A stretch of DNA of 12,616 nt, from the IMG/VR virus record IMGVR_UViG_2609459844_000008, positions 1 through 12,616 of that record. One strand, 5' to 3'. The DNA is from a virus. Lineage: Duplodnaviria; Heunggongvirae; Uroviricota; Caudoviricetes. Shown here piece by piece: positions 1-12,616 of the stretch (the first letter of the stretch is position 1; each line of letters starts with the position of its first letter). Under the pieces are notes generated by a model that searched no databases, was not told where the DNA came from, and worked only from the letters and a program-made list of their open reading frames with translations. Both the position numbers and the translations under genes were made by a program.

Positions 1-471
1 CAGTTTTTTGGCAATATGTAAGCCCTGGCCGACACAGCCGTACTGCCCTTTGCTCAGGTCTGCCTTCGGATGATTCAGCGTACTCATATCCTGCACATCA
101 TGCAGACAGTGGTCAGCCGGGATGATGTCGTTATACGTACAACTCTCTCCACCCGGAGTTACCGTGCTGCGGCGCGCCAGCTGTTTAATGCGCGGATCCG
201 GAGCATCGTAAGAATCCGGTAACGGAAGCCCTTCACCGTAGGCCATGCCGTTGGACTGTCCGGCAAGCACAACCACGTAGAACCAGTCCGGCTCAGATGA
301 AGGGCCGACCTGTGGATCTCCTTCAATAGCCACCGCCTGCATCAGTGTGTACGGCGTAATGGCAACCGGTCCGCCATATGGCTGCCAGCCCTCTTTCAGT
401 TTGTGTGTCAGCTTTTCCGCAAGGTCTGACGGCGACGCCGCCCTGACAACATCATAGTGTTTAAATGCCAT
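1..471 (-). CDS. Sialate O-acetylesterase NanS-p-like protein, N-terminal 157 codons only (gene continues past the window start)
   Basis: Manual translation of the minus strand from ATG at 471..469 gives MAFKHYDVVRAASPSDLAEKLTHKLKEGWQPYGGPVAITPYTLMQAVAIEGD..., then ...VVVLAGQSNGMAYGEG... (GQSN motif of SGNH/DUF303 esterases). SD GGAGG 5 nt upstream. Resemblance to the DUF1737 N-terminus of Stx-phage 933W L0105-type esterases is from memory, not searched. Frame stays open to position 1. Confidence 0.7.
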   Translation of the reverse strand, partial: MAFKHYDVVRAASPSDLAEKLTHKLKEGWQPYGGPVAITPYTLMQAVAIEGDPQVGPSSEPDWFYVVVLAGQSNGMAYGEGLPLPDSYDAPDPRIKQLARRSTVTPGGESCTYNDIIPADHCLHDVQDMSTLNHPKADLSKGQYGCVGQGLHIAKKL

Positions 472-665
472 GAATCCTCCCGGCCGGGATAATATTGTGA
501 GTAAAATGAGGAGCGGGCTGAAGTCCGGAAGTTACAGGACAATGGCAGAAGAGAGACAATAGCCCGCAATACGAAAAAGGCCGCGCTATTGCGCAGAGTG
601 ATTACTGTCGGATATTATTCGCCAGCTGAAATATTACTTCACGTTTTGTTGTTTATTCCTTGCCG

Positions 666-693
666 CCCGCGTCTCCCTGCGCGGGATTTTTTT
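666..693 (+). terminator. Candidate intrinsic terminator (plus strand)
   Basis: 6-bp GC stem CCCGCG(666-671)/CGCGGG(680-685), 8-nt loop, followed by A then seven T (687-693). No plus-strand ORF lies upstream of it. Confidence 0.45.
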
Positions 694-696
694 GTC

Positions 697-724
697 CATA
701 AGAAAGCCCCTCCGGAGAGGGGCT
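697..724 (-). terminator. Candidate intrinsic terminator (minus strand), back to back with the previous hairpin
   Basis: Perfect 8-bp stem AGCCCCTC(705-712)/GAGGGGCT(717-724) with CGGA loop; on the minus strand it is followed by UUCUUAU (interrupted U tract), so strength is uncertain. Confidence 0.35.
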
Positions 725-920
725 GGAGAGTGGCGCTATGTGCCATTGCATGGTGCCGGGTGCCTCCCGGTGAATTCAGTACCAGCACCTGAATCCGCGA
801 TTATCCCATATACCTACTCGCTGATTGCCCCTCCGCACAGGGGGATTCACCATGCCAGTTTCTTTTAACAAACTCCCCGCAAAACAGACAACTGTCAACC
901 GTCTGAATTGTGAGACATTT

Positions 921-945
921 AAAAAAAAGGCCCGCAAAAGCGAGC
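921..945 (-). terminator. Intrinsic terminator closing the tRNA cluster
   Basis: On the minus strand: hairpin GCUCGC-UUUU-GCGGGC (one G-U pair) from plus 930-945, followed directly by eight U (plus A-run 921-928), ~15 nt past the 3' CCA of the last tRNA. Confidence 0.65.
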
Positions 946-960
946 AAGGGAAAATAAGTG

Positions 961-1037
961 TGGCGCGTTGTACTGGATTCGAACCAGTGACCGATTGCTT
1001 AGAAGGCAATTGCTCTGTCCGGCTGAGCTAACAACGC
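961..1037 (-). tRNA. argO: tRNA-Arg, anticodon UCU (reads AGA), 77 nt with encoded CCA
   Basis: Hand-folded cloverleaf of the reverse complement: acceptor GCGTTGT/ACAACGC, D-stem GCTC/GAGC, anticodon stem ATTGC/GCAAT with loop CTTCTAA, T-arm ACTGG-TTCGAAT-CCAGT, discriminator G, CCA. Symbol is by positional analogy to the ileZ-argN-argO cluster of Stx phages and is tentative. Confidence 0.85.
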
Positions 1038-1050
1038 AGGGTACAGATAA

Positions 1051-1127
1051 TGGACCGCCATCGAGGACTCGAACCCCGCGCAACCAGCTTCGAAGGCTGG
1101 CGCTCTATCCTGATGAGCTAATGGCGG
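1051..1127 (-). tRNA. argN: tRNA-Arg, anticodon UCG (reads CGA), 77 nt with encoded CCA
   Basis: Hand-folded: acceptor CCGCCAT/ATGGCGG (C1-G72), D-stem GCTC/GAGC, anticodon stem CCAGC/GCTGG with loop CTTCGAA, T-arm CGGGG-TTCGAGT-CCTCG (one G-U), discriminator U, CCA. Symbol tentative. Confidence 0.8.
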
Positions 1128-1134
1128 TATGTGA

Positions 1135-1206
1135 TGGTGGCCCTTGCTGGATTTGAACCAGCGACCTGGCGATTATGAGTCGCTCTCACCACTGAGCTAA
1201 AGGGCC
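1135..1206 (-). tRNA. ileZ: tRNA-Ile2 (lysidine)/Met-type tRNA, anticodon CAU, only 72 nt; anticodon stem appears truncated (possible pseudo-tRNA)
   Basis: Acceptor GGCCCTT/AAGGGCC, D-arm GCTC-AGTGGTGA-GAGC, T-arm GCTGG-TTCAAAT-CCAGC, loop CTCATAA and CCA are all recognisable. Only 2 nt (GA) separate the D-stem from the anticodon loop where 6 are expected; compared with E. coli ileX as I recall it, about 4 nt of the 5' anticodon-stem strand are missing. Confidence 0.6.
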
Positions 1207-1215
1207 GGGAGCCGC

Positions 1216-1244
1216 ATAATAACGACGCGTAATTAATTCTTCAA
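1216..1244 (-). promoter_or_regulatory. Candidate sigma70 promoter for the tRNA cluster
   Basis: Minus strand reads TTGAAG (1244..1239), a 17-nt spacer, then TATTAT (1221..1216). Predicted start is 2-3 nt upstream of the mature 5' end of the first tRNA (1206), consistent with a short RNase P-processed leader. Confidence 0.5.
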
Positions 1245-1368
1245 TATCATCCGTTCTGGCTGACTAAATCCTGTACTTCCCGAACCGTCTGCTCAAAACA
1301 TTCAGTCTCCAGCTCAACGCCAATTGCACGACGCCCGAGCGCCAGTGCTGCTTTGACGCTACGGACAT

Positions 1369-1397
1369 AAAAAAGCCAGCCACTGGGGGAGGCTGGC
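1369..1397 (-). terminator. Candidate intrinsic terminator (minus strand) upstream of the tRNA promoter
   Basis: Perfect 7-bp stem GCCAGCC(1375-1381)/GGCTGGC(1391-1397), 9-nt loop; on the minus strand followed by six U (plus A-run 1369-1374). Confidence 0.55.
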
Positions 1398-1580
1398 GAA
1401 ACTCGTAGAGCAAAAGTGTTGTTACACTAACTTCGTCACAGGATTATCCTGCAATACTCAAAATACACAATATTTACAAAACTAATAGTATACAAGGCGA
1501 TCTTTAAGATTTTGTTATAAATTATTGCCTTTCTCCTCTTTCCATGAGCTTTCTGGGTAGCCACAGAATTCCGGGTACAG

Positions 1581-1604
1581 AAAAACCCGCTCAGCGGCGG
1601 GTTT
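1581..1604 (-). terminator. Candidate intrinsic terminator (minus strand)
   Basis: Stem CCCGC(1586-1590)/GCGGG(1597-1601), extendable with A-T pairs to 8 bp, 6-nt loop; on the minus strand followed by UUUUUCUG. Confidence 0.45.
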
Positions 1605-2031
1605 AAGCTGTGTGACGAAGTAACCACTCTTAACAGCATAACCAATTTTTTACGTACGTAAACCACTAAATGATATTTGCGAGAATGCTACCGAGTATTG
1701 AAAACACCACTACAAATACATAAGCAAATCTCAACAAATAACCAACAAATAATTTCCAGTGTTATTTTTAGCCGGTTTAAATTGAACCTTCAAATTATAG
1801 AGCACTTATAAATAACAGCCGTTAATATAAATTGGCTAATAGATTTATTTTTATTCAGCCAAGAGCCATGAATAGGATTCGATAGAAAAAAGTTCAGATA
1901 AAAATAGAGATCTACTTCACAAATCAAACGAGAAACCAAAACTAACATCTTGAAATAATCACATTGATTAGATGAATATTTATCGCGCAGTGACATCATT
2001 TTTTAATAATAGTTCAAAAAAAGGGCTCACG

Positions 2032-3114
2032 ATGAAAAAATTAACAGTGGCAATTTCTGCTGTAGCTGCATCAGTACTGATGGCGATGTCTGCTCAGGCA
2101 GCTGAAATTTATAATAAAGACAGTAACAAGCTGGATCTGTACGGGAAAGTTAATGCTAAGCACTATTTCTCCTCTAATGATGCAGATGATGGTGATACTA
2201 CTTATGCCCGTCTTGGCTTCAAAGGTGAAACCCAAATCAACGATCAACTGACTGGTTTCGGTCAGTGGGAATATGAATTCAAAGGCAACCGCGCTGAATC
2301 TCAAGGTTCCTCCAAAGATAAAACCCGTCTTGCCTTCGCTGGCCTGAAATTCGGTGACTACGGCTCAATCGATTACGGCCGTAACTACGGTGTAGCATAC
2401 GACATCGGTGCGTGGACTGACGTTCTGCCAGAATTCGGTGGCGATACCTGGACCCAAACAGATGTGTTCATGACTGGTCGCACCACTGGTGTTGCAACTT
2501 ATCGTAACAACGACTTCTTTGGTCTGGTTGATGGTCTGAACTTTGCTGCTCAGTATCAGGGTAAAAATGACCGCACTGACGTAACTGAAGCTAATGGTGA
2601 TGGTTTCGGTTTCTCCACTACTTATGAGTATGAAGGATTCGGTGTAGGTGCAACCTATGCTAAATCTGACCGCACTAATAATCAGGTTATCTACGGTAAC
2701 AACAGCCTGAATGCATCTGGTCAAAATGCTGAAGTATGGGCAGCTGGTCTGAAATATGATGCGAACAACATCTATCTGGCTACCACCTATTCTGAACCCC
2801 AGAACATGACTGTTTTTGGTAATAACCATATTGCCAACAAAGCACAAAACTTCGAAGTAGTTGCACAATATCAGTTCGACTTCGGTCTGCGTCCGTCCGT
2901 TGCTTACCTGCAATCTAAAGGAAAAGACTTGGGTGCGTGGGGTGATCAGGACCTGGTTGAATATATTGATGTAGGTGCAACCTATTACTTCAACAAAAAT
3001 ATGTCCACTTTTGTTGATTACAAAATCAACCTGATTGATAAGAGCGATTTCACGAAAGCATCTGGCGTTGCTACCGATGATATCGTTGCTGTAGGTATGG
3101 TTTACCAGTTCTAA
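2032..3114 (+). CDS. Outer-membrane general porin, OmpC/OmpF superfamily, closest in character to OmpD/NmpC/Lc prophage porins (360 aa)
   Basis: Start taken at the internal ATG 2032 with SD AAGGG 6 nt upstream, not the 1972 ATG. Signal peptide [23 protein letters not shown] then [16 protein letters not shown]; characteristic porin motifs ([44 protein letters not shown]) and C-terminal ...VAVGMVYQF ending in Phe. TAA stop 3112-3114. Confidence 0.95.
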
Positions 3115-3138
3115 TTTGATTACTAAAAGATATGTTGC

Positions 3139-3157
3139 GGGGGGGTTTGCCTCCCCC
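3139..3157 (-). other. GC hairpin between the Q-like gene and the porin 3' end; weak terminator candidate on the minus strand
   Basis: G-run 3139-3145 pairs with C-run 3153-3157 around a 7-nt loop; on the minus strand it is followed by GCAACAUAUCUUUU (U tract displaced ~8 nt), so terminator function is doubtful. Confidence 0.3.
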
Positions 3158-3250
3158 ACATATAAGAGGCTCCCTCAAGCCACTTCCTTTAGGAGCACAA
3201 CCTTGCTTCTAACTATATAAACCTTCTGTTATATATTACCCTTTATTTTT

Positions 3251-3280
3251 GGGGGCGTTGCAACGCCCCATTTTTAATAA
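3251..3280 (+). terminator. Intrinsic terminator of the porin gene
   Basis: Perfect palindrome GGGGCGTTGCAACGCCCC (3252-3269) followed on the plus strand by ATTTTTAATAATTTTT. Confidence 0.6.
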
Positions 3281-3302
3281 TTTTTAGTAAACAATTGGCA
3301 TA

Positions 3303-3686
3303 TTAATTAGAGTTATTAACAACGATATCCATCTCTAACCGGATATCTAATGCCATTAACATCCCTTCAATTATGCCCTCAGCCTTCTGTAACCTTTTCC
3401 CGATATAACCATCAGAGCAGCAATGCTTACCTGCCAGTGACATGAATGTCATACCGACTACATAATAATCTACTAATAAATCGTGCAAATCGCTGTTGTT
3501 CTTTTTCAGACGGGCCATGCACCCGCAAATAATCATCGCGTCATCGTCACAACATTGCGGGCGAGATTTTACTTTTGAAGTAATTAATCCCTTAAAACCG
3601 GCGGCAATGGACGACCAGGTCACATCTTCATGATTATTAGCCGCCCACGCTCCCCAGCGTTCGAGAACCATCTGAATATCACGCAT
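3303..3686 (-). CDS. Late-gene antiterminator Q-like protein (QuuD/DLP12-type, 127 aa)
   Basis: Start moved from the TTG at 3701 to ATG 3686..3684, which has SD GGAG 7 nt upstream. Product [24 protein letters not shown]...[16 protein letters not shown]... matches my recollection of the DLP12 QuuD-type Q protein. Last gene of the minus-strand operon, convergent with the porin gene. Confidence 0.8.
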
Positions 3687-3703
3687 CAACTTTCTCCACA
3701 AAA

Positions 3704-4723
3704 TCAGGACAGCACACCAATCGCCAGCGCGCGATCGATAAAACGAAATATCAGCTCCAGTTGGGAACCATACTTCTCTTCAAATGCCACGGTATCCGCA
3801 TGTAGTTCGTCATGGTGTTTTCTGCACAAAGGCAACACAAAAAGGTCATGCGCTTTTGTACCCATTCCACCCTGACCATGACCAATCAGGTGATGAGGAT
3901 CGTCGGCTGGCTTACCACAACATGCACACGGCTGCGTCTTAACCCAGCGCGTGTACTTTTCATTAACCCAGCGACGACGTTTTGGGCGTAACATAAAAGA
4001 CTCCGGCGACTCCGGATCCACTTTCAGCGCCAGCACCTTTTTCGCTTTATCCTGGATGATGCTGGTGGCAGGAACCGAAGGCACAAGGTCACTTTCCCGG
4101 GTGACAGACGGCACAACAGGCTTCGGTAATCTCAGTGCCTTACGGGCTGCACTTTCCGGTAAGGCATCCGCCAGGTCATTACGAATCAGCCACCAGCACA
4201 GTTCCGGCATTGTCACAACGTGACTGTCATCAAAACCGAGATCCCGACGCACAACAGACAACACCCAGCGGGCACAGTTATCCGTTGCCATTGATTCCAG
4301 CCGTTCCGTGAACTGATCGCGCAGCTGGTTATCGCAGTGCCAGCACAGACGGATTGCACCCGGAGCGTGTCGCATTGTGGTCATGTTCTCGCTGTGCCAG
4401 TCGGAATGAGGCCACTGGCAGCCTTTTTCACGAAGTAACCAGCTTTCAAGACATTCCACGCCACCAGCACGACGGATCACTGCCTCATTGCGGAACACGG
4501 CCCGAACGGCAGGATCATCCGCCAGCGGTTGTGATGCCGCCGGAACGGCACCACTGGCGAAAGATGAATAACGTTCCGGCTCAGGCTCCAGCAGGACACG
4601 CCCCTGCATAAACAGGGGCATCAGCTCTGAACCGGGCCTGAACAATACAATCCCCATACGCGGGGCAATTTCAGGGGTCAGCAGTGCTCTCACGGTCACC
4701 TCAGCAAACGATATTGAATGCAT
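3704..4723 (-). CDS. nin-region protein, DUF968/YdfU-like, with a C-terminal HNH-like Cys/His motif (339 aa)
   Basis: ATG 4723..4721 with no strong SD. C-terminus ...[45 protein letters not shown] has the CxxC...HH...GG...C..HH spacing of HNH nucleases. Family name recalled, not searched. Confidence 0.7.
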
Positions 4724-4744
4724 ACAGAGAAAAAAACTCAGTCA

Positions 4745-5002
4745 TCACGCAGTAAACTCCTTCACCAGTATTTCAAACTGGCTTACCTGTCCTTCCAGTT
4801 CCTCCACGCAATCCACCAGCTCATCCACCGCCTTTTGTGTACGGTGTTTTGCCTGCAGCAGATCACGAAGCGCCGGAGTAAGCTGCTTGCGGAGCGTATC
4901 TTTTGCCACGCTCGTTTTTTCCATCTGTTCAGCACAACGAAGCATCTCCTGCGCCTGCCGACGAAGTTGTTCCGGTGAAACAGTGATTGTTCTGTTGTTC
5001 AA
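4745..5002 (-). CDS. Hypothetical small protein (85 aa), predicted helical/coiled-coil
   Basis: TTG start at 5002..5000 overlapping the DnaB-like TGA (TTGA), with GGAG 9 nt upstream. No recognised domain. Confidence 0.5.
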   Translation of the reverse strand: MNNRTITVSPEQLRRQAQEMLRCAEQMEKTSVAKDTLRKQLTPALRDLLQAKHRTQKAVDELVDCVEELEGQVSQFEILVKEFTA

Positions 5003-6399
5003 AATAAACGCTCCGTTTTACTGCCCGACATGCGGTTATTGCTGTATCTGCGCGGATTGCCCGGCGTCATGGGTGTGGAAAGAACCCGGGCACTCTCCTG
5101 ATCCACAGGCAGAAAATGCCCGTTATGAAAACGCCGGTAAATGGTACCCAGCGTGCCATTACGCTGTTTCGTGATGTTGATTTCTGCTATGCCTCTGGCC
5201 TGAGTTTCCGGGTTGTATACCTCATCCCTGTAAAGCATCAGAATGATGTCGGCATCCGCCTCGATTTCCCCGGAGTTTTTCAGGTCCGAGTTCATTGGGC
5301 GTTTATTGGGTCTGGATTCCACGCCGCGGGAGAGCTGGCTCAGAGCAATCAGCGGAAAACCGCCGGATTTTGCCAGGCTTTTAAGTCCCTTTGAGATTTC
5401 CCCCACCGCAAGGTCGTGACGCCCCGTGCTGCGGGTTTTAATCAGGCCGAGGTAATCGACCACCACCAGCGCCGTTTCCGGGTGTTTCATCCGGTGGTGC
5501 TTCGTGGTTGCACATATCTCATCAATGGTCAGGTTTGCCTGGTCCACCATCCAGATATTACGCCCCGTCATTCGTCCCACGCCCTGCGTGAAACGCGCCC
5601 AGTCTTCATCTTCAAAACGGGCAACAGACTTAAGACGGGATACCGGCATTCCACCGGCAGCAGACACCATACGTTCACCAATCTGGATGTTCGCCATCTC
5701 CATGGTGAACAGAAGCACGCCATGCCCCTGCTCAGTCACCTTGTCGATGATGTCCAGCGCAAGTTCGGTTTTCCCCATCGAAGGACGGGCGGCAATGAAT
5801 ACCAGGTCTCCGGGCTCCATACCGCCCGTTTTTGCGTCCAGTTCATCAATACCGGTCATCAGCGCCCTGGATTTCTCCAGTCCCTGATTGCGGCATTCAA
5901 CACGGTCGACCACTTCCGGAAGGACATCATCAATGTGAACCGGCTGAATGACGCCCTTTCCGGTCGACAGTGAGGCCATCATGTTCTGCGCATCCTTCAG
6001 GGCATCCTCGGCTGCTTCACAGGTATACGCATCACGTAAATTCTGTAATGCTTCAGTCAGTGTTTTTTCTGCATCGCGCAGTGCGGCATTGCGCCGCAAC
6101 GCTGCGACATAGTGCTCCAGTGAAGACTTCACCCAGGTTTTGCGTCCGGTGTCGGTAATCACCGGGGCAAGTTCCGGCATCTCATTGCACAGCAGTACGG
6201 GGTCAATGACGCCGGATATGCGAGCCTGTCTGCAAATCCCCGCGTAAATATCCCGGTACTGACGCACAAAAAATACATCCGCCGGAAGTGTGGCCAGAAT
6301 ATCCATCACTTCCGGATCGGCCCCACGCAGAAAAAACGCACCGATGACAGCGCCTTCCAGGTCATCGTTACGCCATGCCGGGGTGTTCTGGCTGGTCAT
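4999..6399 (-). CDS. Replicative DNA helicase, DnaB family (466 aa, phage-encoded)
   Basis: ATG 6399..6397 overlaps the upstream stop (ATGA); SD GGAGG upstream. Walker A AARPSMGKTELALD and Walker B LVVVDYLGL, typical DnaB N- and C-domain sequence. Confidence 0.95.
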   Translation of the reverse strand: MTSQNTPAWRNDDLEGAVIGAFFLRGADPEVMDILATLPADVFFVRQYRDIYAGICRQARISGVIDPVLLCNEMPELAPVITDTGRKTWVKSSLEHYVAALRRNAALRDAEKTLTEALQNLRDAYTCEAAEDALKDAQNMMASLSTGKGVIQPVHIDDVLPEVVDRVECRNQGLEKSRALMTGIDELDAKTGGMEPGDLVFIAARPSMGKTELALDIIDKVTEQGHGVLLFTMEMANIQIGERMVSAAGGMPVSRLKSVARFEDEDWARFTQGVGRMTGRNIWMVDQANLTIDEICATTKHHRMKHPETALVVVDYLGLIKTRSTGRHDLAVGEISKGLKSLAKSGGFPLIALSQLSRGVESRPNKRPMNSDLKNSGEIEADADIILMLYRDEVYNPETQARGIAEINITKQRNGTLGTIYRRFHNGHFLPVDQESARVLSTPMTPGNPRRYSNNRMSGSKTERLF

Positions 6400-7295
6400 G
6401 CGGCAACACCTCCGATACGAGAACGGTAGCTGGGCCAGTTAAACGACAACCAGTTGCGCCCGCCATCGGTGATCCTGTCGGCAATCCGGGGACTGATGAA
6501 CGCCCACAATTCTTCCGGTGAAAGGTTGCTGATCAGGATAGTTGGCAAAATACCCTCATACCGGGCATTGATAATTTCCTGCAAAATGGCCATTTCAGCC
6601 GCACTGCCAAACTGAACGCCGACTTCGTCGACAATCAGCAAATCCAGTGACGCATAATGCTCAATGACGTCATCCGCTGTTTTTTCACTGTCATTCCGCC
6701 AGCAGTTTTTCACAGCCCGGGTAAGGCGCATCACGTCGGTGATCTCCACACTGGCCAGATAGTTACGGATGATGTGTTTTGCCATTGATACCGCCAGATG
6801 ATTTTTCCCGGTACCGCAACTGCCGGTCATAACAATACTGGTACCGTTCTCCAGCATATCTGGCCAGTTCTCCGCATAGCGGCGACAGGCCGCAAGATTT
6901 CTGGCTGCGTCAGGATTAACCTCCAGATAATTATCAAACTCGCAGTCCCGAAAACGCAGAGCAATTCCGGCGTTATCAGTCAGTTCTTCCGCCTTGAGGG
7001 ACGACAGTTCCATGGTCAAATCACTGGCCTCAGCGATCAAGCAGTCAGGGCAGCATGAAATTTTTTCTCTGTCCTCGCCATTACGATCGATCCACACCAG
7101 TATATGCGTACGATATTTACCGTGTTTTTCGCAATATCCGCGATCTTCACGCATCAGGCAGGAACGATAAGGCCATGGCTTTTCGCCCTTCTGAGCAAAT
7201 GCAATCTCTGCCCGTAACTCATCCATTTCTGCCCGTAACTCATCCATTCGCGCCTGTAGTCTTGTTTGTTTCTCACGTTGGTCAATCGTCATCAT
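6396..7295 (-). CDS. DnaC-like helicase loader, IstB-type AAA+ ATPase (about 299 aa)
   Basis: Walker A GSCGTGKNHLAVSMAK and Walker B LLIVDEVG. The longest ORF starts at GTG 7304; ATG 7295..7293 is preferred because GAGGT sits 7 nt upstream. The N-terminus contains a perfect 7-aa duplication (MDELRAE x2). Confidence 0.9.
   Translation of the reverse strand: MMTIDQREKQTRLQARMDELRAEMDELRAEIAFAQKGEKPWPYRSCLMREDRGYCEKHGKYRTHILVWIDRNGEDREKISCCPDCLIAEASDLTMELSSLKAEELTDNAGIALRFRDCEFDNYLEVNPDAARNLAACRRYAENWPDMLENGTSIVMTGSCGTGKNHLAVSMAKHIIRNYLASVEITDVMRLTRAVKNCWRNDSEKTADDVIEHYASLDLLIVDEVGVQFGSAAEMAILQEIINARYEGILPTILISNLSPEELWAFISPRIADRITDGGRNWLSFNWPSYRSRIGGVAA
7207..7248. repeat. Perfect 21-bp tandem duplication (2 copies) inside the DnaC-like gene
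   Basis: TCTGCCCGTAACTCATCCATT at 7207-7227 and again at 7228-7248; in frame, encoding MDELRAE twice. Confidence 0.9.
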
Positions 7296-7305
7296 CGCTG
7301 TCACC

Positions 7306-8298
7306 TCAGAATGTCAATTTGTTACTGGATTTACCGAATTTGTCAGACATGGCTCCCAGGCCAGCCAGGACATCGACCTGTCGCTGTCGCCCACCTCCGT
7401 GAGCGGCTGGCTGTTGCCAGTAATCTTCGAAGTGACGATCGGGTCCAAAGAACGTCGCAGCCTGCTTCACGAACTGTGTGCCGGTATTTCCTGTAGCACG
7501 TACCCAGGCGGCATACCGCTTCACGCCATCAAGCATGGTCTCCGGTTTTATTCCCTCCCTGATACGGGCTTTCCAGGCTTTGAAGGCTGCTGACTTGGAA
7601 TTGCCACCAGCACGTTTGGGATATTCCTGCCAGGCCTGTTCAAATTCCGGTGAATATTCCTGTCGGGCAGAACGCGCTGGCGCAGACGCGTCAGCGGATG
7701 CATCAATAGTGTTTTTAGTCTCCGTTGTAATCTCTGTAGTAATCTCTGTATTTGTATCAACATTCGGCGTATCCCCTGTTCCGTTATGACGTCGGGGGGT
7801 GTTCCGTTTTAACGTAATAGCTGTATCGCTGATTGCATTATTGCTGTTACTTTCTGGCGAAACAGAAGAAGGTGTGGTGATGGCCGCAATTGCCTGTGGG
7901 TTGATCCCGACAAACAAAATATTGCTGCATTTCACCCCATCGAGCATTTCCACCGTGCGTAAATCCAGAGTAATAAACCCTGTATCGCGCAGACGCTTCA
8001 GCGCATCTGCGGTTTCCCTTTTCCCGAAACCAAACTGCTCAGCAAACGCCTGGTAGCTTCTTTGCAGTTTGTCGCCCTGAAAACGCTTGCGATATCCCAG
8101 CAACGCTCCGGTGTGCTCATCCCTGACCTCTGTCGGGCGGTACCAGTAAACGATCTCTGAAAGCAGAGCGATAGCCGTCGCATCCGGACGCCCACTGGGT
8201 AGTCGAATATATTTCCACCAGTTCGCAGGTGTAACATTGCCGGAAATATTAATTTGACCAATAGCCATAACTTCCGGTGTGGGGGCGTAACGGCTCAT
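7306..8298 (-). CDS. Phage replication initiator / replisome organiser, lambda O-like (330 aa)
   Basis: ATG 8298 with SD AAGGAGG upstream. N-terminal domain and C-terminal region (EYSPEFEQAWQEYPKRAGG...AAWVRATGNTG...) separated by a low-complexity T/E/I/S-rich linker; sits directly upstream of the loader and helicase genes. Confidence 0.85.
   Translation of the reverse strand: MSRYAPTPEVMAIGQINISGNVTPANWWKYIRLPSGRPDATAIALLSEIVYWYRPTEVRDEHTGALLGYRKRFQGDKLQRSYQAFAEQFGFGKRETADALKRLRDTGFITLDLRTVEMLDGVKCSNILFVGINPQAIAAITTPSSVSPESNSNNAISDTAITLKRNTPRRHNGTGDTPNVDTNTEITTEITTETKNTIDASADASAPARSARQEYSPEFEQAWQEYPKRAGGNSKSAAFKAWKARIREGIKPETMLDGVKRYAAWVRATGNTGTQFVKQAATFFGPDRHFEDYWQQPAAHGGGRQRQVDVLAGLGAMSDKFGKSSNKLTF
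7727..7750. repeat. 12-bp direct repeat, 2 tandem copies, in the linker-coding part of the O-like gene
   Basis: GTAATCTCTGTA at 7727-7738 and 7739-7750, encoding TEITTEIT, with degenerate related sequence on both sides. Confidence 0.8.
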
Positions 8299-8594
8299 AC
8301 AACCTCCTTCCGCGGCATGAGAATTGTGTAGCCACGCGCAGGTTGTAGTCTGGCTTTTGCATCAATAGTAAGCGTTGCAATTTTTCGGATATGAAGATAA
8401 CCAGCTCTTTCCAGTGCCAGGGTTTCCCTGAATATCGCTTGCTTAGAACAACAGCAGAAATCAGCAAGCACCTGATGATCAATAACTCTCTCGCCTTCAC
8501 CGTCTGAAGAACCCGACATCAAAACACGCAACATAACCAGGCGCTGAATCGGGTTATCGAAAGCACATCCGCACACAAACTGAAAACAGTTCAC
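8295..8594 (-). CDS. Hypothetical protein (99 aa), possible winged-helix DNA-binding fold
   Basis: GTG start overlapping the upstream stop (GTGA); stop overlaps the O-like ATG (ATGA). Segment VLADFCCCSKQAIFRETLALERAGYLHIRK resembles a recognition helix and wing. Start codon uncertain. Confidence 0.55.
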   Translation of the reverse strand: MNCFQFVCGCAFDNPIQRLVMLRVLMSGSSDGEGERVIDHQVLADFCCCSKQAIFRETLALERAGYLHIRKIATLTIDAKARLQPARGYTILMPRKEVV

Positions 8595-8815
8595 GCCACA
8601 CCTCCCAGACGCTTAAACATTTTTCCAGACAGAAATACCGCCAGAGGGTAACTGATGGTGTAGCTACGCCCCTGTAGTTCGCACACGACTTTCTGGCTTT
8701 CAGCGTTGACCAGGCAAACCCGCAGAACGTGACCGTTGCTGGTGGCGAACCACTGCCCCACACGGGGGCAACGGTTGTATCGGTGATACAGGGAATTAAC
8801 GATGTGGCGGATCAT
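8591..8815 (-). CDS. Hypothetical protein (74 aa)
   Basis: ATG 8815 with SD GGAGGTG 7 nt upstream; 4-nt overlaps with both neighbours. Confidence 0.6.
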   Translation of the reverse strand: MIRHIVNSLYHRYNRCPRVGQWFATSNGHVLRVCLVNAESQKVVCELQGRSYTISYPLAVFLSGKMFKRLGGVA

Positions 8816-9006
8816 GGATGCACCTCCGCCGTAGTTACGTATTTAACCGGGCTACCTTTCATTGAGATGGTTTCACACATCTCTGCCGCTTTCAGTTCCG
8901 CTGTTTTTCTGGATTTATAGCGACGGTGCCAGACAGATACATCCGTGCGAACTGATACATCGTTTCTGTATTCCGTAGTGGAGATGATGATTTCGTAACT
9001 AATCAT
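8812..9006 (-). CDS. Hypothetical protein (64 aa)
   Basis: ATG 9006 with SD AAGGAGG upstream; ATGA overlap with the Rha-like stop. Confidence 0.6.
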   Translation of the reverse strand: MISYEIIISTTEYRNDVSVRTDVSVWHRRYKSRKTAELKAAEMCETISMKGSPVKYVTTAEVHP

Positions 9007-9554
9007 GGGCGAACCTCCTTGTCAGAACCATTCAGCCTGGAATCAACAAGTGCAGCGCCAAAAACAGCATCACCAACACGGTCGTACAGTTTGCTAGCCA
9101 GCGGAGATTCAATGGCCTTAAGCATTGGATAAAGCTGGCTTGTCCAGATTTGATGGATTTCACGCAAATGCAGGTATACGCCTCTGGCGTTTCGTGCGAC
9201 AGCTGACATATCAACCGCGTCAGCACCAGATAAATTCTTCTCCATCTGGTTAAAGGCGTTGATGTATGCCTCTTTGAACCGGGCTGCACGTTTGCCAGTA
9301 AAGCCCATAGCAAGGAACGCGAAGCCATCACGGGTGATTTGATAGCAAGGTAGTTTGCGGCCTGTGCAATCGGTGTAATCACTCACCGAAAAATTGCGGG
9401 CAGTGAATGATGCGGAGCATTCAAGCGTGCGGATCTTTTTCAGTACATCGTCATGACGCTTGGAGAAGAAGTTGGCAACAGCCAGGGATGAAGTAACAGC
9501 CTGACCATCAACGATGGCAATTTCAGGTTGAGTGAGGGTTGGGATCGTAGCCAT
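9003..9554 (-). CDS. Phage regulatory protein Rha family (183 aa)
   Basis: Start set at the internal ATG 9554..9552 with SD GGAGG 8 nt upstream; the 100-codon extension up to 9854 has no RBS and is low-complexity. Product has Rha hallmarks: FSKRHDDVLKKIR, YQITRDGFAFLAMGFTGKRAARFKEAYINAFNQME. Confidence 0.8.
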   Translation of the reverse strand: MATIPTLTQPEIAIVDGQAVTSSLAVANFFSKRHDDVLKKIRTLECSASFTARNFSVSDYTDCTGRKLPCYQITRDGFAFLAMGFTGKRAARFKEAYINAFNQMEKNLSGADAVDMSAVARNARGVYLHLREIHQIWTSQLYPMLKAIESPLASKLYDRVGDAVFGAALVDSRLNGSDKEVRP

Positions 9555-9938
9555 GATGGCAGCCTCCGTTGACTGTGGAAAACTTCCACCACCGGAGCTG
9601 CGAAACTCACTGGTGGCAGACTGAACAGGGTTCGCAGTACCGGCGTCAACGGAGACCGGCGAGCCTTTCGGCTCCCCTGCCCAGCCCACCATAATTCTGG
9701 CGTGCGTGAGCGCGGACGATAAAAAAGACGCTGGCGCGTCATATATCGCCGTTGACAATTCCGGGCTGCGACCCCCGGCACCCGCTTTATAAGGTGCAGA
9801 GACAGTGTAACGTCCCGAAATTGCAGAATCAATATTTGGTCTTGAAATGATCATATAGCTGCTGATATCTTTAGAACTGTTCTTGGATGTTTCGGAGCCG
9901 TTTTATGCGAAACAGCTCCCCGTTATTGATGTTGAGTG

Positions 9939-9963
9939 AGCCGGGTTACTCCCGGCTTTTTTT
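9939..9963 (+). terminator. Strong intrinsic terminator on the plus strand with no plus-strand gene upstream
   Basis: Perfect 7-bp stem AGCCGGG(9939-9945)/CCCGGCT(9951-9957), loop TTACT, then seven T through 9963. It abuts the stop codon (9965..9963) of the minus-strand gene; on the minus strand it is preceded by A and not followed by U. Confidence 0.6.
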
Positions 9964-10358
9964 CACCGCTGCCAACCAATAACCTGAAATAACCCCATTT
10001 TCGGGTGATACCAGCGAGTCCCTCGCGGTTCTGCTTCCTCCATAACCCGATAAAAAGCAGCCATAAACGGTTCCACAGCAACAATTGCGCGACGTGACAA
10101 CAATCCGTCCGGCGTCATGAACTCATGTGTGTCTGTAGGAATTTGATAGGCGTTCACCAGATTGCGGCATTTATCATCTGACAAACCGGTTTTTGCTTTC
10201 AGTTGGCGATATCCGGCATAGCCCTCACGAATAGTGCCCTTTTTAATTTGCTCGACTGTTTCAGCAACGTGGCTGACTTTTTCTTCCACCTGAGTGATCC
10301 GTTTCTGCTGACGAACTGCTTCAAGAGCCATCGCGGCAACCATTTCGATTTCGCTCAT
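9963..10358 (-). CDS. Hypothetical prophage protein (131 aa); first gene of the minus-strand block
   Basis: ATG 10358 has no convincing SD. The frame is stop-free for 53 more codons upstream (to TGA at 10520..10518) but contains no ATG/GTG/TTG. No recognised domain. Confidence 0.55.
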   Translation of the reverse strand: MSEIEMVAAMALEAVRQQKRITQVEEKVSHVAETVEQIKKGTIREGYAGYRQLKAKTGLSDDKCRNLVNAYQIPTDTHEFMTPDGLLSRRAIVAVEPFMAAFYRVMEEAEPRGTRWYHPKMGLFQVIGWQR

Positions 10359-10520
10359 TGGCTTACGGATCTGTTCTTCCAGTTCGCGCCAGCGATCTAC
10401 CAGGCGAGCAGTGAATTCAGGACAGAGCTGTGCGACGACAATGATGCTGTCGCGCTTAACTCCGGATGGTTGGATAAGCTGTAGTGAGCGAATGCCGGAC
10501 GACAGGCAGGAGGTGAATCA

Positions 10521-10622
10521 ATGAGCTGGCCTGATGCAATCGTAACTCTGGGGGGTGGTATTCGCAGCAGCGTTTGTTGTGTTCTCGATTTGTCGATGGG
10601 GATAACCACATGTTCGCTTTGA
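10521..10622 (+). CDS. Candidate small ORF (33 aa) with a strong RBS, overlapping the start of the next gene; possible leader/upstream ORF
   Basis: AGGAGGTGA at 10508-10516, ATG 10521; product MSWPDAIVTLGGGIRSSVCCVLDLSMGITTCSL; TGA 10620-10622 overlaps the downstream ATG at 10610 out of frame. Below the size cut of the ORF track. Confidence 0.3.
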   Translation: MSWPDAIVTLGGGIRSSVCCVLDLSMGITTCSL

Positions 10623-10852
10623 TTCAACGCGGTCAGATATACACGGACAGAGCCGGATACCCCGTGGTGATTACTCGCATCACTGAGCACTCAGTGTTCT
10701 TTCGACGGATGGACGGACGATCCGGGCGGGTACGCATTGGTGAGTTAAACTGCCTGTTCGAACATATTGACCACCAGGAGTACCGCAAAATTCTCGCGGA
10801 CACTGAGCAGGAAAAGCACCTGAAAAAATTACGAGCCATAAAAAGGAAGTAA
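10610..10852 (+). CDS. Hypothetical small prophage protein (80 aa)
   Basis: Internal ATG 10610 preferred over the TTG at 10574. Product MFALIQRGQIYTDRAGYPVVITRITEHSVFFRRMDGRSGRVRIGELN...; TAA at 10850-10852. Confidence 0.6.
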   Translation: MFALIQRGQIYTDRAGYPVVITRITEHSVFFRRMDGRSGRVRIGELNCLFEHIDHQEYRKILADTEQEKHLKKLRAIKRK

Positions 10853-10855
10853 AGA

Positions 10856-11002
10856 ATGAATAAAGCATTTGAACGATGGGTCCACCAGCGTTACGGCAAT
10901 CGCTATTACCTGACGCGAGATGTTGACGGCTTCTACTGTCGTGAAGTTGTGAAGCGAATGTTTGAAGTGTGGTGCCACTGCCGTGGGCTGAGTGTTGTGT
11001 GA
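10856..11002 (+). CDS. Candidate small protein (48 aa) with a C-terminal Cys/His cluster
   Basis: ATG 10856 three nt after the upstream stop, with AGGAAG 4 nt upstream (short spacing, probably coupled). Product MNKAFERWVHQRYGNRYYLTRDVDGFYCREVVKRMFEVWCHCRGLSVV; TGA 11000-11002 lies 8 nt before the next ATG. Not in the ORF track. Confidence 0.45.
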   Translation: MNKAFERWVHQRYGNRYYLTRDVDGFYCREVVKRMFEVWCHCRGLSVV

Positions 11003-11010
11003 GGTAATAC

Positions 11011-11247
11011 ATGGGCAATGTGATTCAACTGGCTCCCAATGAATGGGTTTGTGAAAGCGTTCTTATCGCAATTACCGGGCTCAAACCAGGCACAATTCTT
11101 CGGGCCCGGAAAGAATGCTGGATGGTTGGAAGAGAGTATATTCACGTATCACCAGACGGTAATCCAAAGCCTTCCAGTGAATGTATGTATAACAGAAAAG
11201 CAATAGATGCCTGGGTCGCCTCAATGAAAAACAAACAACCCAGGTGA
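11011..11247 (+). CDS. Excisionase-like small DNA-binding protein (78 aa)
   Basis: ATG 11011 with GAGG 6 nt upstream; immediately upstream of and co-oriented with the integrase. Resemblance to prophage excisionase-like proteins is from memory. Confidence 0.65.
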   Translation: MGNVIQLAPNEWVCESVLIAITGLKPGTILRARKECWMVGREYIHVSPDGNPKPSSECMYNRKAIDAWVASMKNKQPR

Positions 11248-11302
11248 TTTAATATCATGAAATATGTAAGCTCGTATCGCTCTTGGGCGTCTGGAGGTAT
11301 CG

Positions 11303-12616
11303 ATGGATAAAGTCAAATATCCAACAGGCGTCGAAAACCACGGCGGCACATTACGCATCTGGTTTAATTTTAAAGGTAAACGTGTCAGGGAAAATCTTGG
11401 TGTCCCTGACACTGCCAAGAACAGGAAGATCGCCGGGGAACTGCGGACATCAGTATGTTTTGCCATCCGCACAGGAAGCTTTGATTATGCTGCACAGTTC
11501 CCTGACTCCCCCAACCTTCAGGCTTTTGGGGTAAGTAAAAAAGAAATTACGGTGAAGGAACTTGAAGAAAAGTGGCTGGATCTGAAACGAATGGAAATCT
11601 CTGCAAATGCATTCAATCGCTATGAATCCGTTGCAAGAACGATGGCTCCGAAAATTGGAGGCAGTAGACTGGTGTCATCGGTAACCAAAGAGGAATTGCT
11701 GTATATCAGGAAAGATTTGCTTACCGGGTATCAGAATTCAACGAAAAACAAAGCAGCAGCAAAAGGACGGAGCGTCGTTACTGTAAATTATTACATGACG
11801 ACAATCGCTGGAATGTTTCAGTTTGCTGCAGATCACGGTTACTTAGAAGCAAATCCCTTCCAGGGAATTAAGCCTCTTAAAAGAGCCAGGGCAGAGCCAG
11901 ATCCGCTAACTCGTGACGAATTTATTCGCCTGATAGATGCTTGCCGACATCAGCAGACGAAAAACCTGTGGTCATTGGCTGTGTACACAGGAATGCGTCA
12001 CGGTGAACTGGTCTCCCTGGCCTGGGAAGATATCGATCTGAAGGCAGGAACAATTACCATCAGGCGCAATTATACGAAACTTGGTGAGTTCACTCTACCG
12101 AAAACTGAAGCAAGCACAAACAGGGTTGTGCACCTTATCCAGCCCGCTATCAGTGTCCTGAAAAATCAGGCTGAAATGACAAGACTGGGTAAGCAGTACA
12201 ACATCAAGGTGCAACTACGTGAATATGGACGTTCAGTGAACCATGAATGTACTTTCGTGTTTAACCCTCAAGTGGTTAGAAAAAGCGAACAGGTAGGTTT
12301 TGTCTACAAAGTCGATTCTGTAGGTGACTCATGGGAAACAGCCATTAAGCGTGCAGGGATCAGGCATCGAAAGGCATACCAGTCACGACACACTTATGCG
12401 TGCTGGTCATTATCTGCCGGAGCAAACCCAAGCTTCATTGCCAGCCAGATGGGCCATGCAAGTGCCCAGATGGTATTCAATGTATACGGAGCATGGATGA
12501 CTGACAGCAATGCAGAACAGATCGCAATGCTGAATCAGAAGCTGACAGATTATGTCCCAATGATGCCCCATAGTCACCAAAGTGACACCAGAGGCTTATT
12601 AAAATCAGTAAGTTAA
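11303..12616 (+). CDS. int: Tyrosine site-specific recombinase / phage integrase (437 aa)
   Basis: ATG 11303 with SD GGAGGT at 11293-11298. C-terminal catalytic domain with ...YTGMRHGELVSLAWEDIDL... (Arg), ...RHTYACWSL... (His-x-x-Arg) and ...MGHASAQMVFNVYGAW... (His and Tyr). TAA at 12614-12616. Overall resemblance to Stx-phage 933W-type integrases is recalled, not tested. Confidence 0.95.
   Translation: MDKVKYPTGVENHGGTLRIWFNFKGKRVRENLGVPDTAKNRKIAGELRTSVCFAIRTGSFDYAAQFPDSPNLQAFGVSKKEITVKELEEKWLDLKRMEISANAFNRYESVARTMAPKIGGSRLVSSVTKEELLYIRKDLLTGYQNSTKNKAAAKGRSVVTVNYYMTTIAGMFQFAADHGYLEANPFQGIKPLKRARAEPDPLTRDEFIRLIDACRHQQTKNLWSLAVYTGMRHGELVSLAWEDIDLKAGTITIRRNYTKLGEFTLPKTEASTNRVVHLIQPAISVLKNQAEMTRLGKQYNIKVQLREYGRSVNHECTFVFNPQVVRKSEQVGFVYKVDSVGDSWETAIKRAGIRHRKAYQSRHTYACWSLSAGANPSFIASQMGHASAQMVFNVYGAWMTDSNAEQIAMLNQKLTDYVPMMPHSHQSDTRGLLKSVS

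Follow-up and report, generated by a model that had tools for sequence, protein, structure and literature searches.

In lambdoid phages, RNA polymerase that starts at the late promoter pR' and is modified by the antiterminator Q is expected to pass the terminator tR' as well as the terminators downstream of it. Autonomous units that consist of a promoter, a gene and a terminator and are inserted between conserved phage genes are known as morons. The closest described counterparts of the locus analyzed here are those of phage 933W and prophage Sp5. In the 933W record (AF125520), the annotated elements follow each other in the order Q, pR', qut, two possible terminators, pT, ileZ (AUA), argN, argO, a terminator and stx2AB. 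In E. coli O157:H7 Sakai, primary 5' ends have been mapped by dRNA-seq (Sy et al. 2020, PMC7547250), and one such start in this Sp5 lysogen appears to serve the tRNAs. According to the same study, pR' of Sp5 is constitutively active, yet its transcripts are terminated at tR', 258 nt downstream, and the interval between pR' and tR' yields the regulatory sRNA StxS.

We analyzed a stretch of viral DNA of 12,616 nt (positions 1 to 12,616 of IMG/VR record IMGVR_UViG_2609459844_000008), denoted here, at its full length, the window. ARAGORN predicts three tRNA genes and no more in the window; all of them lie on the minus strand, where both ARAGORN and the alignments give the anticodon order CAU, UCG, UCU of the 933W/Sp5-type ileZ-argN-argO cluster. 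The first gene encodes an ileZ-type CAU tRNA, that is, an ileX-like tRNA-Ile2 (1206..1135, minus strand; 72 nt; 58.2 bits with the Rfam tRNA model); the second, an argN-type tRNA-Arg with the anticodon UCG (1127..1051, minus strand; 77 nt; 56.0 bits), which aligns with 933W argN; and the third, an argO-type tRNA-Arg with the anticodon UCU (1037..961, minus strand; 77 nt; 70.1 bits), which aligns with both K-12 argU and 933W argO. The initial annotation had recognized these three tRNAs, without stating the strand and without noticing that 4 nt are missing from the CAU gene; it had let the assignment depend on covariance models, and all three genes score above the gathering score of the Rfam model (29 bits). 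CCA ends are encoded in the argN-type and argO-type genes, and these two form canonical cloverleaves, unlike the ileZ copy. Covariance-model and ARAGORN structures were used for this assessment, as minimum free energy folding was uninformative on cloverleaf quality. The CAU tRNA is labeled Met by ARAGORN; assuming lysidine modification, the ileZ family is correctly read as Ile (AUA).

The resemblance to 933W and Sp5 includes the same three anticodons in the same order, the 17-nt promoter spacer, the TATTAT -10 element and the position in the late region, with 87-93% DNA identity over pR', tR', the methylase remnant, pT, the tRNA genes and the terminator. From 1663 to 920, the minus strand of the window aligns with the 933W segment extending from pR' to the terminator that precedes stx2, with 86.9% identity over 753 nt. 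A 501-nt query spanning the cluster matched 297 phage records, most of which are Stx-converting phages with 91-93% identity, whose records use the gene names ileZ, argN and argO for the tRNAs. The top match (97.8%) is the stx-negative Escherichia phage PhiR49_2 (PV340570), which has an identical pT and an identical terminator, the same order of Q, methylase fragment, tRNAs and holin, and no stx, but differs from the window in the intact ileZ (76 nt, 72.5 bits), the lack of a porin insertion and another tR'-containing upstream region. Compared to 933W, the window lacks the stx genes and 4 nt of ileZ, has the -35 hexamer TTGAAG in place of TTGCAG, and contains a porin gene between Q and pR'. In argO, position 37 is A in the window (961-1037), as in the host argU, and G in 933W (positions 2296-2372 of the 933W locus, L002; loop CUUCUGA). 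A37 would normally be the site of the t6A modification. The argO gene shares the D-arm, the anticodon loop and the T-loop with E. coli argU, and intact ileZ agrees with K-12 ileX in 69 of its 76 positions, among them the core of the anticodon stem-loop and GGCCC, the opening five positions of the acceptor stem; the stems of ileZ and argO differ from those of the chromosomal ileX and argU, with paired changes. The ileZ sequence is widespread, being detected in 3053 of 5426 complete E. coli genomes (about 56%), in up to 12 copies each.

Given this resemblance, we consider it likely that the cassette is a copy of the ileZ-argN-argO moron of the 933W/Sp5 type, with the transcription and decoding role described below and with a crippled ileZ. 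The cassette is already known: it is a rediscovery of the module annotated in the 933W record, with nothing new in kind, and what is new locally is the absence of stx together with the 4-nt deletion in ileZ. Like other morons, it has its own promoter and terminator, is located between conserved late modules, and varies in presence and content among related prophages, with at least six cassette compositions behind the same promoter and several unrelated upstream junctions. The difference from the typical moron is that the cargo consists of tRNA genes rather than of a protein-coding gene for lysogenic conversion.

The predicted sigma-70-type promoter of the cassette, pT (1244..1216, minus strand), was detected by a consensus scan and aligns with the element annotated in 933W as "pT; putative tRNA promoter". 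It consists of the -35 hexamer TTGAAG (1244..1239), a 17-nt spacer and the -10 hexamer TATTAT (1221..1216), which ends 9 nt ahead of the first tRNA gene, such that transcription is predicted to start about 2-3 nt before this gene. The initial annotation described this promoter as near-consensus; the hexamers and the short gap to the tRNA are as it described, but with 9 of 12 consensus positions matched, the wording is generous. Moreover, promoter-like matches are not above chance in the 3 kb scanned (2 found compared to 5.3 expected in shuffled sequence); the hexamer match by itself proves nothing, and the case for pT is built on its conservation and on the published start mapping in the homologous prophage.

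Conservation was examined in 115 IMG/VR loci that include the 5' sequence of ileZ, for which the 60 nt upstream occur in 37 distinct variants. The -10 hexamer is TATTAT in 35 of these 37 variants and TATCAT in the remaining two; the TTG of the -35 element keeps the 17-nt spacing in 35 variants and lies one base farther upstream in two; and 33 variants have 9 nt between the -10 hexamer and the tRNA. Upstream of the -35 element, at least five unrelated sequence families are present among the 37 variants, and the retention of hexamers and spacing across these contexts indicates that the promoter travels with the tRNAs as one unit. In one of these families, the T-run of a terminator lies directly before the -35 hexamer, an arrangement that makes sense only if transcription restarts there. 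The spacer of pT is fairly conserved as well, and conservation of the hexamers is, in part, plain homology.

These observations bear on the possibility that the tRNAs are mere passengers of the late operon, made only when Q-modified polymerase passes tR', with pT being a chance match. The location of the cassette downstream of the pR'/tR' module is compatible with this view, as are the imperfect match to the promoter consensus and the abundance of equally good matches in shuffled sequence. Nevertheless, it appears very unlikely, in view of the persistence of TATTAT, the -35 TTG, the spacing and the distance to the tRNA across unrelated contexts and of the terminator T-run that immediately precedes the promoter in one of them. 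The region from tR' to ileZ in Sp5, where the start site was mapped, is identical to that of 933W and aligns with the window throughout; within it, pT of the window differs from the Sp5 version at one position of the -35 element and several positions of the spacer. At the level of the family, Q-independent expression of the cassette has good support and has been published before; in the copy contained in the window, it is plausible by homology.

Behind the tRNA genes, there is an intrinsic terminator (945..921, minus strand), which was identified by a terminator scan and by folding, and corresponds to the "terminator upstream of the stx genes" of 933W. The hairpin, GCTCGC-TTTT-GCGGGC (945..930), has a folding energy of -10.1 kcal/mol, and a C with a T8 run extends from it to position 921, which agrees with the terminator noted in the initial annotation. 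The same hairpin was recovered after the last tRNA gene in 54 of the 115 related loci.

Within the lambdoid late region, the cassette follows pR'/tR' and precedes the lysis genes. Alignment to the annotated pR' of 933W (L002 1667-1694) reveals a pR'-like late promoter, TTTACG-16-TATGCT (1662..1635, minus strand), which is followed by a first, weaker hairpin (1602..1581, minus strand) and by the tR' hairpin with T6 (1397..1369, minus strand), both identified by folding and by alignment to the 933W terminators. The folding energies of tR' and of the first hairpin are -14.7 and -13.8 kcal/mol, respectively, and tR' lies about 260 nt past the predicted start of pR'. Between tR' and pT, a DNA methyltransferase gene is represented by a 3'-terminal remnant (about 1360..1247, minus strand), which corresponds to a PGAP pseudogene in the prophage of E. 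coli AF39 and to a methylase CDS in PhiR49_2; its stop codon abuts the -35 hexamer of pT. Upstream of pR', the window encodes a QuuD/933W-type antiterminator Q (3701..3303, minus strand; PF06530, E = 4e-53; quuD in AF39) with 74.6% DNA identity to 933W Q. The presence of the 933W-like pR'/tR' upstream places the cassette within the Q-controlled late unit, not isolated from Q, and read-through by Q-modified polymerase from pR' should add to the output of pT. Therefore, of the initial proposal that the operon is self-contained and independent of Q, the part concerning its own promoter and terminator stands, but the cassette is nested in a late unit.

Several other features of the late region deserve mention. 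The interval between pR' and tR' (1628-1369, minus strand) resembles an StxS-type leader, whose RNA would end at tR', in a prophage without stx; an Rfam search yielded no family matching this interval. Directly downstream of the tRNA terminator, there is a match to the STnc100 sRNA family of Rfam (884..694, minus strand; 139 bits compared to a gathering score of 47). This region ends in a hairpin of its own (724..705) and corresponds to the 933W sequence just after stxB. A 2026 preprint ties STnc100 to the PasD prophage sRNAs. The possibility that STnc100 is the true leader of the late promoter, which would leave the tRNAs outside the late unit, was considered and ruled out because pR'/tR' lies upstream of the cassette; the correspondence of the STnc100 region to 933W sequence downstream of stxB contradicts it as well. 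Further downstream, a gene for a SASA/NanS-p-like esterase starts at position 471 (minus strand). Between Q and pR', on the opposite strand, an OmpC/Lc-type porin is encoded (1972..3114, plus strand; PF00267, E = 1.5e-152). Unlike the surrounding phage genes, the porin gene contains no AUA, AGA, AGG, CGA or CGG codons at all, a profile that suggests a host-adapted conversion gene expressed in the lysogen.

The segment of 933W that contains stx2AB (L002 2412-3745) has no counterpart in the window, and judging from this comparison, the prophage is an stx-negative relative of an Stx phage. The empty toxin site maps to about 885-920 (minus strand), between the tRNA terminator and STnc100, with homology to 933W resuming on both sides. 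Across 78 loci examined for a relationship between stx and cassette integrity, 8 carried stx, too few for a conclusion. Far from the late region, at 9797-9609 (minus strand), matches to the C4 antisense RNA (78.8 bits) and to isrK (58.7 bits) of Rfam are found next to each other, within an ORF of the Rha/Ash family (9003..9854) or at its 5' end; this layout is that of a P1/P7-like immunity or antirepressor arrangement of the c4-ant type, in a lambdoid prophage.

Genes for tRNAs are common attachment sites, and the cluster might, in principle, be a remnant of a prophage integration site at such a hotspot, which is how a recent preprint interprets tRNA matches near prophage sRNAs. For the cassette, this origin is next to impossible: the cluster is internal to the prophage, with Q on one side, the lysis genes on the other and the integrase about 10 kb away, and its occurrence at the same position in the complete genomes of the free phages 933W and PhiR49_2 refutes the interpretation.

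The moron reading, to which we now return, implies the following course of events. The cassette would have been inserted as a small autonomous unit into the late region, behind pR'/tR' and ahead of the lysis genes. In the lysogen, pT would fire about 2-3 nt before the first tRNA gene, constitutively and without Q, as expected by homology, and after induction, Q-modified polymerase from pR' would pass both tR' and the terminator of the cassette, adding to the tRNA supply. The tricistronic precursor would presumably be cut by RNase P and 3' processing enzymes to give mature tRNAs, for which CCA is encoded. Of these, argO (UCU) would supply decoding of AGA and AGG, argN (UCG) would add a U34 reader for CGA and CGG that E. 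coli lacks, and an intact ileZ would serve as an ileX-like tRNA-Ile2 for AUA. To our knowledge, the E. coli tRNA set includes no tRNA with the UCG anticodon, so that argN would add a decoder and replace none.

To assess the demand for these tRNAs, codon usage of the phage genes in the window (2779 codons, porin excluded) was compared with that of a 50-kb segment of the AF39 host chromosome (14,286 codons). The AGA codon is used 9.7 times per 1000 codons in the phage genes and 1.0 times in the host sample (p = 1.6e-12), and AGG, 6.5 and 1.0 times, respectively (p = 3e-7), so that AGA and AGG are about 7-10 times more frequent in the phage genes than in the host sample. The excess of CGA is smaller (5.4 compared to 2.9 per 1000; p = 0.04), and AUA is used at the host level (4.3 compared to 3.8 per 1000; not significant). 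In the AF39 prophage, the early genes contain 8.6 AUA, 8.6 AGA, 4.3 AGG and 8.1 CGA codons per 1000, and the late genes, 3.9, 4.2, 3.5 and 3.4, respectively. Thus, in the late genes, the excess of AGA and AGG is only 3.5-4-fold, with AUA and CGA at the host level, and the excess of rare codons is larger in the early genes. The stx2AB genes of 933W contain 36.9 AUA, 14.8 AGA, 4.9 AGG and 4.9 CGA codons per 1000.

The AGA/AGG excess makes a supply role plausible for argO, and a CGA role for argN is weakly indicated. The initial annotation had invoked codon supplementation for the late genes; supplementation as such agrees with the AGA/AGG excess, but the late genes are not its specific target, given their host-level use of AUA and CGA and the larger excess in the early genes, and a demand from early genes would fit a constitutive promoter. 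In the sources consulted, we found no experimental demonstration of codon supplementation by this cassette, and a literature search by the gene names ileZ, argN and argO returned nothing relevant.

An alternative role that the initial annotation had raised is counter-defence, whereby the cassette would replace host tRNAs cut by anticodon nucleases, for example, tRNA-Arg cut by colicin D, with copies that escape cleavage. Anticodon nucleases, PrrC, PARIS and colicin D among them, often target the class to which anticodons of the U34 or k2C34 type belong. All members of the cassette family have anticodons of this type (CAU, UCG, UCU, UUU, UGU, UCC), some homologues have variant anticodon loops (G37 in 933W argO and C33 in a UUU tRNA derived from argN), and constitutive expression would suit a defence role. 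All the same, this role appears improbable for the cassette. A tRNA with an anti-defence function would duplicate a host isoacceptor and differ from it in the anticodon loop or stem, whereas the anticodon loop of argO, CUUCUAA, is exactly that of the host argU, there is no host UCG tRNA that argN could replace, and the ileZ copy is damaged. Furthermore, a nuclease partner is neither known nor was one found, and the codons read by the tRNAs are those enriched in phage genes and in stx, which supplementation explains directly. The suggestion of the initial annotation is, accordingly, without support.

Variant cassettes occur among the related loci. One such cassette, present in L007 and 13 other IMG/VR loci (L041, L044 and L045 among them), encodes, behind the same promoter, tRNAs with the anticodons CAU, Lys-UUU, Thr-UGU and Gly-UCC. 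In the Lys-UUU tRNA, the acceptor stem and D-arm of argN are combined with a replaced anticodon arm, with the loop CCUUUAA that has C at position 33, and this tRNA looks like an anticodon-switched paralogue of argN. Cassette decay is also frequent among the IMG/VR prophage loci (for example, in L022, L047, L092, L006 and L014), in the form of argN/argO fusions that apparently recombined at the anticodon loop, degenerate argN genes with insertions, and single-tRNA remnants. In a broader form of the counter-defence idea, the whole cassette family would be a modular, constitutive anti-tRNase kit, in which pT drives interchangeable U34-type sets (CAU/UCG/UCU or CAU/UUU/UGU/UCC), the G37 and C33 variants of the anticodon arm escape nucleases, and the deleted ileZ is tolerated or even functional as a tRNA with a reduced D-arm; we regard this generalization as highly improbable.

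The ileZ copy in the window is 72 nt long compared to 76 nt for the intact gene, having lost one GAGC of the tandem GAGCGAGC that is present in 933W, PhiR49_2 and K-12 ileX, and the moron reading would attribute this loss to slippage in GAGCGAGC. The 4-nt deletion falls at the junction of the D-stem and the anticodon stem. In the Rfam alignment, three of the five anticodon-stem pairs are broken and the score is 58.2 bits, compared to 72.5 bits for the intact allele, whereas ARAGORN retains a 4-bp anticodon stem only at the cost of the D-arm, which becomes degenerate, with a loop of 4 nt closed by two Watson-Crick pairs; an alternative fold with a 3-bp D-stem has an energy of -25.6 kcal/mol. 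The deleted gene keeps the acceptor stem and the core of the anticodon stem-loop and is still accepted by tRNA finders, with PGAP calling the identical 72-nt gene of E. coli AF39 tRNA-Ile. From these structures, the ileZ of the window is probably impaired or inactive. The deletion allele is real but rare: 8-10 of about 2900 E. coli records have it, one of them being that of the near-identical AF39 prophage. Because the 51-nt query aimed at this allele also matched intact alleles, the allele was counted by identity bands, of which the band at 99% or more contains 8 records and that at 95-99% contains 2. The host-level use of AUA and the absence of the AUA-rich stx genes fit tolerance of a dead ileZ, in what is a single case.

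The deletion could also be the first visible step in the decay of a cargo that has no current function in an stx-negative prophage. Consistent with such decay, argN is degenerate or rearranged at many homologous loci, where argN/argO fusions and single-tRNA remnants are frequent too, the AUA codon is used at the host level, and the near-identical AF39 prophage contains several pseudogenes. However, argN and argO are intact in the window, with good scores, as are pT and the terminator, AGA and AGG are strongly enriched in the phage genes, and the AF39 prophage keeps the full set of structural genes. We consider loss of function of the cassette as a whole unlikely.

As a copy of a known module, the cassette matters little, and its local points open no new question. 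Three of them are nevertheless useful for annotation and for thinking about the role of the tRNAs, namely, the stx-negative host prophage, the ileZ allele, which is probably dead but is still called tRNA-Ile by annotation pipelines, and the demand for AGA and AGG rather than for AUA.
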